From: Krischvirus LF73P4
Strand: one strand, 5' to 3'
Sequence record: OZ035795.1
Length of the DNA stretch: 64,000 bases
This document shows, piece after piece, positions 22,693 to 23,157 of this stretch; position 1 is the first letter of the stretch, and each line of letters opens with the position of its first letter. The notes below the pieces were generated by a model. The model had not been told where the DNA came from. It made no database searches and worked only from the letters and a program-made list of their open reading frames with translations. The position numbers and the translations under genes were made by a program.

Positions 22693-23157
22693 TTACAGTT
22701 TGGTCGTCCACTCCAGATCTAGATCTTCGACATACTCATGAGATCGGACAATCTCTAAATCGAACTCTAGGTCAGTGCCAAATTTACGCGCACCAACATC
22801 ATAAGAAAGCGTGATATGCGGTACATATTCAGGATAATCCCACGTCGCGCCTAAAGCAGTGCCTATATCGTGTCTGAATTGCATGTAGTCGCTTTCAAAT
22901 GCCAACACAAGCGCATTAGTACCGGATTGAGTTTCAAACACTTTAAGATGGCATAGAGAGCCTAAAAACTTTTCACCCTCTTCTGGTATAAACGGAACAT
23001 AGACACGAGAATATAAGATAGTGCTATGCAGTTTATCACGAGGAACGGCATTAGGCAGATCGTAGAACTCCTGCAATTTTTCAATGCGGTCTAGTGTATC
23101 CTCAGTGAATTTAACCGCCGCATATGTACCTTTAACGGATTCTCTAAACGGGGTCAT
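22693..23157 (-). CDS. acb1: 2H phosphoesterase, Acb1-like (candidate anti-CBASS cyclic-nucleotide phosphodiesterase)
   Basis: two H-x-T/S motifs (KLHSTILY and PHITLSY) about 70 aa apart; adjacent to gp57A-like and gene 1 as for T4 57B. Confidence 0.65.
   Translation of the reverse strand: MTPFRESVKGTYAAVKFTEDTLDRIEKLQEFYDLPNAVPRDKLHSTILYSRVYVPFIPEEGEKFLGSLCHLKVFETQSGTNALVLAFESDYMQFRHDIGTALGATWDYPEYVPHITLSYDVGARKFGTDLEFDLEIVRSHEYVEDLDLEWTTKL

Follow-up and report, generated by a model that had tools for sequence, protein, structure and literature searches.

The window, i.e., the whole 64,000-nucleotide stretch of DNA that was analysed, comes from a Krischvirus (RB49/JSE-like coliphage). The frame encoding acb1 (gene 57B) occupies positions 22693-23157 of the minus strand and specifies 154 amino acids followed by a stop codon (22693-22695). 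The gene closes the co-oriented block 3-1-57A-acb1. The gene order is identical in T4, where 57B likewise sits past genes 1 and 57A. The features of the locus, listed in the direction of transcription, are as follows:

24737-24743, minus strand: putative late-promoter-like AATAAATA upstream of gene 3, by consensus match
24125-24715, minus strand: gene 3, tail completion / sheath stabiliser (PF06841, PHROG 45, JSE annotation)
23498-23526, minus strand: putative promoter-like match upstream of 57A, by consensus match
23453-24109, minus strand: gene 1, dNMP kinase (PF21448, 8.1e-68)
23160-23426, minus strand: gene 57A, tail fibre chaperone (PF17594, PHROG 1002 at 2.7e-26, JSE annotation)
23165-23169, minus strand: Shine-Dalgarno GGAGG read from the sequence, 7 nt before the acb1 ATG and within the end of 57A
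22656-22686, minus strand: intrinsic terminator found by the terminator scan, a 9-bp GC-rich hairpin with a T-run, beginning 7 nt past the acb1 stop codon
22620-22648, minus strand: putative PeSL-type early promoter TTGACA-17-CATAAT just past the acb1 terminator (11/12 match, strong σ70-type)
21767-21970, minus strand: dmd, antitoxin versus RnlA/LsoA (PF17587, 58.6 bits; JSE annotation)

An earlier note on this DNA had placed a 154-aa protein at the acb1 position, beside a gp57A-like gene and the dNMP kinase gene 1, as at the T4 57B locus. The protein proved to be real, with exactly these coordinates, and the identity of the neighbours was confirmed by Pfam and PHROG matches. The PF17594 score of 57A (27.4 bits) was barely over the cut-off of 27.

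The start of acb1 required a choice between two codons. The program-made ORF list opens the frame at TTG 23163, which gives 156 aa. This start was dropped because it overlaps the 57A stop codon, and because ATG 23157, from which the 154-aa product is made, is preceded by the well-spaced GGAGG and is the start annotated for the phage JSE gene. The 57A stop codon (TGA, 23160-23162) lies 2 nt ahead of the acb1 ATG, whereas in T4 there is a 4-nt overlap between the two genes. As judged from this arrangement, translational coupling from 57A to acb1 is plausible. On the plus strand, the ORF listing holds no ORF of at least 40 aa contained in acb1. A 41-aa plus-strand ORF (22597-22722), which overlaps the last 30 bases of acb1 and the terminator, was rejected as unsupported, and so was a 40-aa out-of-frame ORF on the strand of acb1 itself. 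ARAGORN and Rfam, the latter used at the gathering threshold, revealed no tRNA or structured RNA across the entire window.

The folding energy of the terminator RNA was -14.3 kcal/mol (z=-2.3). The promoter-like sequence behind it (22620-22648) belongs to the dispersed repeat families D7 and D11 and, on the strength of its consensus match, would open the next transcription unit of small ORFs. That unit consists of a 124-aa ORF without assigned function (phrog_15253), a 52-aa ORF, and then dmd, which is thus located 0.7 kb downstream of acb1 with two small ORFs between. In T4, the gene next downstream of 57B is ipI, in place of the 124-aa ORF, the 52-aa ORF, and dmd found here. The stretch past acb1 looks like an anti-defence/accessory region, as the T4 ipI locus does. 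The expression timing, on which CBASS evasion in vivo would also depend, can be read tentatively from the consensus promoter matches. A second anti-CBASS gene (Acb2 / T4 vs.4) was looked for in the three small ORFs between regB and the nrdC.11-like gene, where no Pfam match was found.

Family membership, active-site residues, and predicted fold

The protein matched the Pfam model PF23474 (Anti-CBASS protein Acb1) at E=1.5e-51 (174.4 bits; cut-off, 27), and residues 9-152 aligned to model positions 1-143 of 144. The same model was carried by all 64 of the 64 homologues recovered from a collection of 5.8 billion proteins. T4 Acb1 (gp57B, NP_049750.1), the founding member of the family, is 47% identical to the window protein over the full length (E=3e-47), and the HxT/HxT tetrad, the adenine-reading Glu, and the lid Trp are common to both. 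The sole match in a sequence search of the PDB was Acb1 of Erwinia phage FBB1 (E=1.8e-43), known in the apo form (7T26) and with the 3'3'-cGAMP product (7T27), with 75/142 aligned residues identical (53%). FBB1 differs in host and phage genus, and the window protein is 9 N-terminal residues longer than the crystallised chain. In Krischvirus, this ORF is orthologous to T4 gene 57B, and it encodes an Acb1-family protein of full length.

A search of PHROGs returned phrog_755 (9.8e-55), whose older family label is 'RNA ligase'; the JSE RefSeq and T4 RefSeq records use the same label. According to this label, the product would be a generic LigT-type 2H enzyme, i.e., a 2'-5' RNA ligase or a 2',3'-cyclic phosphodiesterase acting in RNA repair. 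Weak matches to the Pfam models PF13563 (2_5_RNA_ligase2, 19.4 bits) and PF02834 (LigT_PEase, 14.1 bits) point in the same direction. However, both scores are below the gathering cut-offs (27 and 23.3, respectively), and the label is older than the 2022 characterisation of T4 gp57B (PMC9117128).

The catalytic tetrad of T4 Acb1 is composed of H44/T46/H113/T115 (Hobbs et al. 2022, PMC9117128). Four aromatic residues of the T4 enzyme (Y12, W74, F107, and W147) stack on the bases, E141 contacts adenine N6, which explains the adenosine requirement, and residues 145-152 form the lid (PMC9117128). The corresponding elements were found in the window protein at the following positions:

23020-23028, minus strand: codons of H44-S45-T46, the first HxT motif, aligning to T4 H44/T46
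22810-22818, minus strand: codons of H114-I115-T116, the second HxT motif, aligning to T4 H113/T115
22696-22716, minus strand: codons of LEWTTKL (residues 148-154), the C-terminal lid including W150, aligning to the T4 lid 145-152 including W147

The motifs read H44-S-T46-I-L and H114-I-T116-L-S and lie 70 residues apart, compared with 69 in T4. When the window protein was aligned with the T4, JSE, and FBB1 chains, 9/9 of the residues described in PMC9117128 were conserved in it (Y12, H44, T46, F74, Y108, H114, T116, E144, and W150). With respect to T4 Acb1, F74 replaces W74 and Y108 replaces F107, so that each of the stacking positions (Y12, F74, Y108, and W150) retains an aromatic residue; the crystallised FBB1 enzyme also has Phe and Tyr at the two changed positions. 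The window protein also has a 1-residue insertion at 81 and a 2-residue insertion near 130-131. In the alignment of 62 sequences, H44, T46, H114, and T116 were invariant, while Y12 was present in 61/62 and W150 in 47/62 sequences. E144 aligns to T4 E141, and Glu occupies this position in 56/62 homologues.

A structural model was built with AlphaFold2 from the 62-sequence alignment (mean pLDDT 91.6, pTM 0.84). [quoted passage not shown] Values of pLDDT below 50 were confined to the first five and the last four (151-154) residues. The low confidence of the lid tip in the model is consistent with a flexible lid that would be disordered without ligand. Foldseek comparison of the model with the PDB gave these matches:

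7T26, FBB1 Acb1, apo (top match): TM 0.86/0.97, rmsd 0.9 Å, 52% identity
7T27, FBB1 Acb1, complex: TM 0.85/0.93
Burkholderia phage 2H PDE-9: TM ~0.70, 16-18% identity
E. coli LigT: TM ~0.5, rmsd 6-7 Å, 10-12% identity

The presence of LigT structures among the matches could be taken in favour of the RNA ligase reading, and E. coli LigT and other cellular 2H phosphoesterases do share with the window protein a 2H fold and a pair of HxT/S motifs. This likeness is at the level of the fold only, as seen from the TM and identity values above, whereas the Acb1 structures match at TM 0.86-0.97 and 52% identity. Moreover, LigT is devoid of the Acb1 lid and aromatic cage, and the window protein keeps both the C-terminal lid and the Acb1-specific ligand residues. 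The LigT / RNA ligase identity therefore failed the profile and structure tests, and we regard it as extremely improbable. From the motifs HSTIL and HITLS, which it described as typically spaced, the earlier note had proposed an Acb1-like 2H phosphoesterase and had suggested a profile or structure comparison with Acb1 and LigT. Both motifs are there, the Acb1 profile scores far above its cut-off while the generic 2H models stay below theirs, and Acb1 came out clearly ahead in the comparison of structures.

Taken together, a functional Acb1 with an anti-CBASS role is very probably encoded at this locus. The assessment is based on the family membership, catalytic and ligand residues, predicted fold, synteny, intact gene, and purifying selection computed here. 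As for substrates, reaction chemistry, and effect on CBASS, the protein would behave as established in the work on T4 and FBB1 Acb1.

Conservation of acb1 and arrangement of the window

The 2.8 kb around acb1 was at least 95% identical in 58/58 Escherichia/Shigella phage records, and the identity reached 98.5-99.3% in the best 20 of the 58. Among these, the records of JSE, KMB43, and KFS-EC bear the name or the classification Krischvirus (RB49/JSE group). A copy of the gene at no less than 80% identity is encoded by 58/58 Krischvirus-like phage records, and a recognisable homologue was detected in 1,475 phage records. In 10/10 independent isolate or metagenome assemblies, the order was gp2, an 84-aa ORF on the opposite strand, gp3, gp1, 57A, Acb1, a 124/125-aa ORF, a 52-aa ORF, and Dmd.

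Over all 154 residues, the protein shows 100% identity to gp57B of RB49, Phi1, and JSE (Q7Y455_BPRB4; YP_002922201.1), and the neighbouring genes are alike. An exact protein look-up located it on 316 contigs, under RB49, Phi1, JSE, and other accessions. The UniRef entry of the identical sequence is named 'Anti-CBASS protein Acb1 n=16 Tax=Krischvirus RepID=Q7Y455_BPRB4'. The gene has thus already been catalogued as Acb1; the first reading of the locus was right, and the finding is not new. With respect to JSE acb1, there are 6 nucleotide differences, all of them (6/6) synonymous, which leaves no difference at the protein level; acb1 is under purifying selection. In Enterobacteria phage Cognac, acb1 is annotated as two pieces of 82 and 64 aa (QZI93711.1, QZI93712.1), which share a 90% cluster with the window protein. 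The split is either a natural disruption, like that of acb1 in Bas43, a BASEL phage able to escape Panoptes, or a sequencing error.

The block order and orientation of the window differ from those of JSE, and the window is collinear with no reference Krischvirus. The corresponding segments are:

window 278-5690: JSE 121167-127044, plus orientation
window 5605-24851: JSE 44907-65561, plus orientation
window 24743-51313: JSE 152500-126957, minus orientation
window 51229-64000: JSE 44991-31430, minus orientation

Written as blocks, JSE is A R B S C R D S' E, and the window is C R B S D' R' A'. The long-tail-fibre genes 35 and 34 consequently come next to gene 3 in the window, in place of genes 2 and 4. 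The three junctions (5605-5690, 24743-24851, and 51229-51313) all fall within short repeats. One of the junction repeats is a PeSL of ~85 bp, whose two copies in the window are 95% complementary (I1). The other is an element of ~110 bp; in the references, one copy precedes gene 3 and an inverted copy precedes gene 36. None of the matching phage reference records spanned the 24.8-kb and 51.3-kb junctions (58 and 84 records, respectively), and the 5.6-kb junction was compared with JSE alone. The 24.8-kb junction was also absent from all 10 independent assemblies carrying an identical gp3. The pattern of this junction was not matched in IMG/VR or in the JGI metagenomes (0 hits each). The control pattern of the canonical junction also had 0 hits in IMG/VR, so that the result there carries no weight, and it matched only 1 JGI metagenome contig, which has the canonical join. 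The arrangement may have arisen by two nested large inversions or by mis-assembly (an alternative path in the assembly graph), and we lean towards mis-assembly. The acb1 block is wholly within one collinear segment and is unaffected.

The window contains dispersed repeats of ~60-100 bp, each with TTGACA, a GC-rich stem-loop, a TATAAT-like box, and a leader with GGAGA. Promoter-early stem-loop (PeSL) cassettes are known from RB49 and Phi1 (PMC2839356, PMC4122927), and the dispersed repeats of the window are PeSL cassettes. They are located as follows:

572-629, 816-873, 1522-1579, 2301-2358, 4087-4144, 5249-5306, and 5641-5698: PeSL repeats
13682-13764, 19639-19696, 20348-20405, 20617-20674, 22135-22217, and 22602-22668: PeSL repeats
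39074-39115, 42516-43100, 51226-51310, 55128-56126, and 60915-60989: inverted PeSL copies

Several other features of the window were recorded. Three adjacent small ORFs of ~111, 81, and 64 aa lie at 13350-14182 (minus strand), and no Pfam match was obtained for any of them. By eye, they look paralogous, with the motif ...Y.(F/Y)TP...GYI.DD.G..I......C.HL.GR.W.L.... in common. The thymidylate synthase ORF (35261-36484, plus strand) is 407 aa long and aligns to only ~276 positions of PHROG 160; a second family matches it at residues 251-407 only, and the JSE gene has the same length. This suggests an insertion of ~130 aa compared with the typical Td. The nrdD gene (57880-59742, plus strand) is a single intact ORF of 620 aa, whereas a homing-endonuclease gene splits it in JSE (JSE 35715-38337); there, ~770 bp are absent from the window.

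Proposed mechanism and substrate range

T4 Acb1 cleaves 3'3'-cGAMP, cUA, cAAA, and cAAG, and its role in CBASS evasion has been proven (PMC9117128); T4 Δacb1 is restricted by CBASS operons (PMC9117128). The ligands of Acb1 are 3'-5'-linked cyclic di- and trinucleotides with at least one adenosine, and cGG and cA4 are not cut (PMC9117128). Cleavage is metal-independent and occurs 3' of adenosine, as shown for T4 and, in a product-state complex, for FBB1 (PMC9117128). In that paper, 9/9 further recombinant Acb1 homologues cleaved 3'3'-cGAMP and cAAA (PMC9117128), and the RB49-type phage vB_EcoM-G2494 was included in the screen of infected-cell lysates by Hobbs et al. (PMC9117128). The G2494 Acb1 is identical to the window protein in 153/154 residues. 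In the literature, we found no biochemical or genetic assay of the exact ortholog or of a Krischvirus enzyme.

By analogy with these enzymes, the product of acb1 would be a small metal-independent 2H phosphodiesterase. Its most likely ligands are the host CD-NTase products 3'3'-cGAMP, cUA, cAAA, and cAAG. The bases would be stacked between Y12, F74, Y108, and W150, adenine N6 would be read by E144, and the ligand would be covered by the closing C-terminal lid. In the strained ligand, the 2'-OH of adenosine would attack the adjacent 3'-5' bond, with H44/T46 and H114/T116 as catalysts. A 2',3'-cyclic phosphate intermediate would then be converted into a linear 3'-phosphate product, e.g., GpAp. 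With the CBASS signal depleted, the effectors would stay off, and the phage would escape abortive infection.

Since 53% of the positions differ from T4 Acb1, the substrate range and rates could be different. The low identity to T4 Acb1 (only 47%) is the reason why we allow for an Acb1-family enzyme whose main target in E. coli is other than CBASS: the cA3 of type III CRISPR or of other cyclases, or else a narrowed specificity that spares Panoptes-type guards. Acb1 is able to degrade cA3/cAAA, and T4 Acb1 degrades 2'3'-c-di-AMP. In other phage 2H PDEs of the Acb1 structural group, the substrate preference differs owing to changes in the enzyme core. One member of this group, 2H PDE-9 of Burkholderia phage BCSR5 (9Q2Y/9Q2G), is the match at TM ~0.70 and 16-18% identity; it degrades 3'3'-cGAMP and avoids 2'3'-c-di-AMP, and its lid is N-terminal, in contrast to the C-terminal lid here. 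Against a changed target, the nine contact and catalytic residues are all conserved in the window protein, including the Glu that reads adenine, every Acb1 homologue assayed to date cleaves 3'3'-cGAMP and cAAA, and CBASS occurs in E. coli (PMC9117128). We consider such a shift of the main target very improbable, and it is a refinement of the main explanation, not its replacement.

Acb1 activity can also be turned against the phage. When T4 Acb1 is over-expressed, it breaks down 2'3'-c-di-AMP and switches Panoptes on; BASEL phages with an Acb1 gene are restricted by type II Panoptes, a sensor of cA3 loss. In one study, deletion of acb1 from T4 left the defence by type I Panoptes unchanged. It is conceivable, at a low probability, that core changes in the Krischvirus Acb1 clade shift its substrates (e.g., to poor activity on 2'3'-c-di-AMP or cA3), so that CBASS would be evaded without tripping Panoptes-type guards. 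If true, the shifted spectrum would be a natural specificity variant inside a well-known family.

The preferred reading, a functional anti-CBASS Acb1, carries little weight as a discovery, because the structure, mechanism, and anti-CBASS role of the family were published in 2022. Its practical use is in annotation, as many GenBank/RefSeq records of Krischvirus still say 'hypothetical protein' or 'RNA ligase'. The phages of the RB49/JSE type are candidates for therapy. For them, resistance to many CBASS systems is to be expected from the carriage of Acb1, together with possible sensitivity to Panoptes-type guards.
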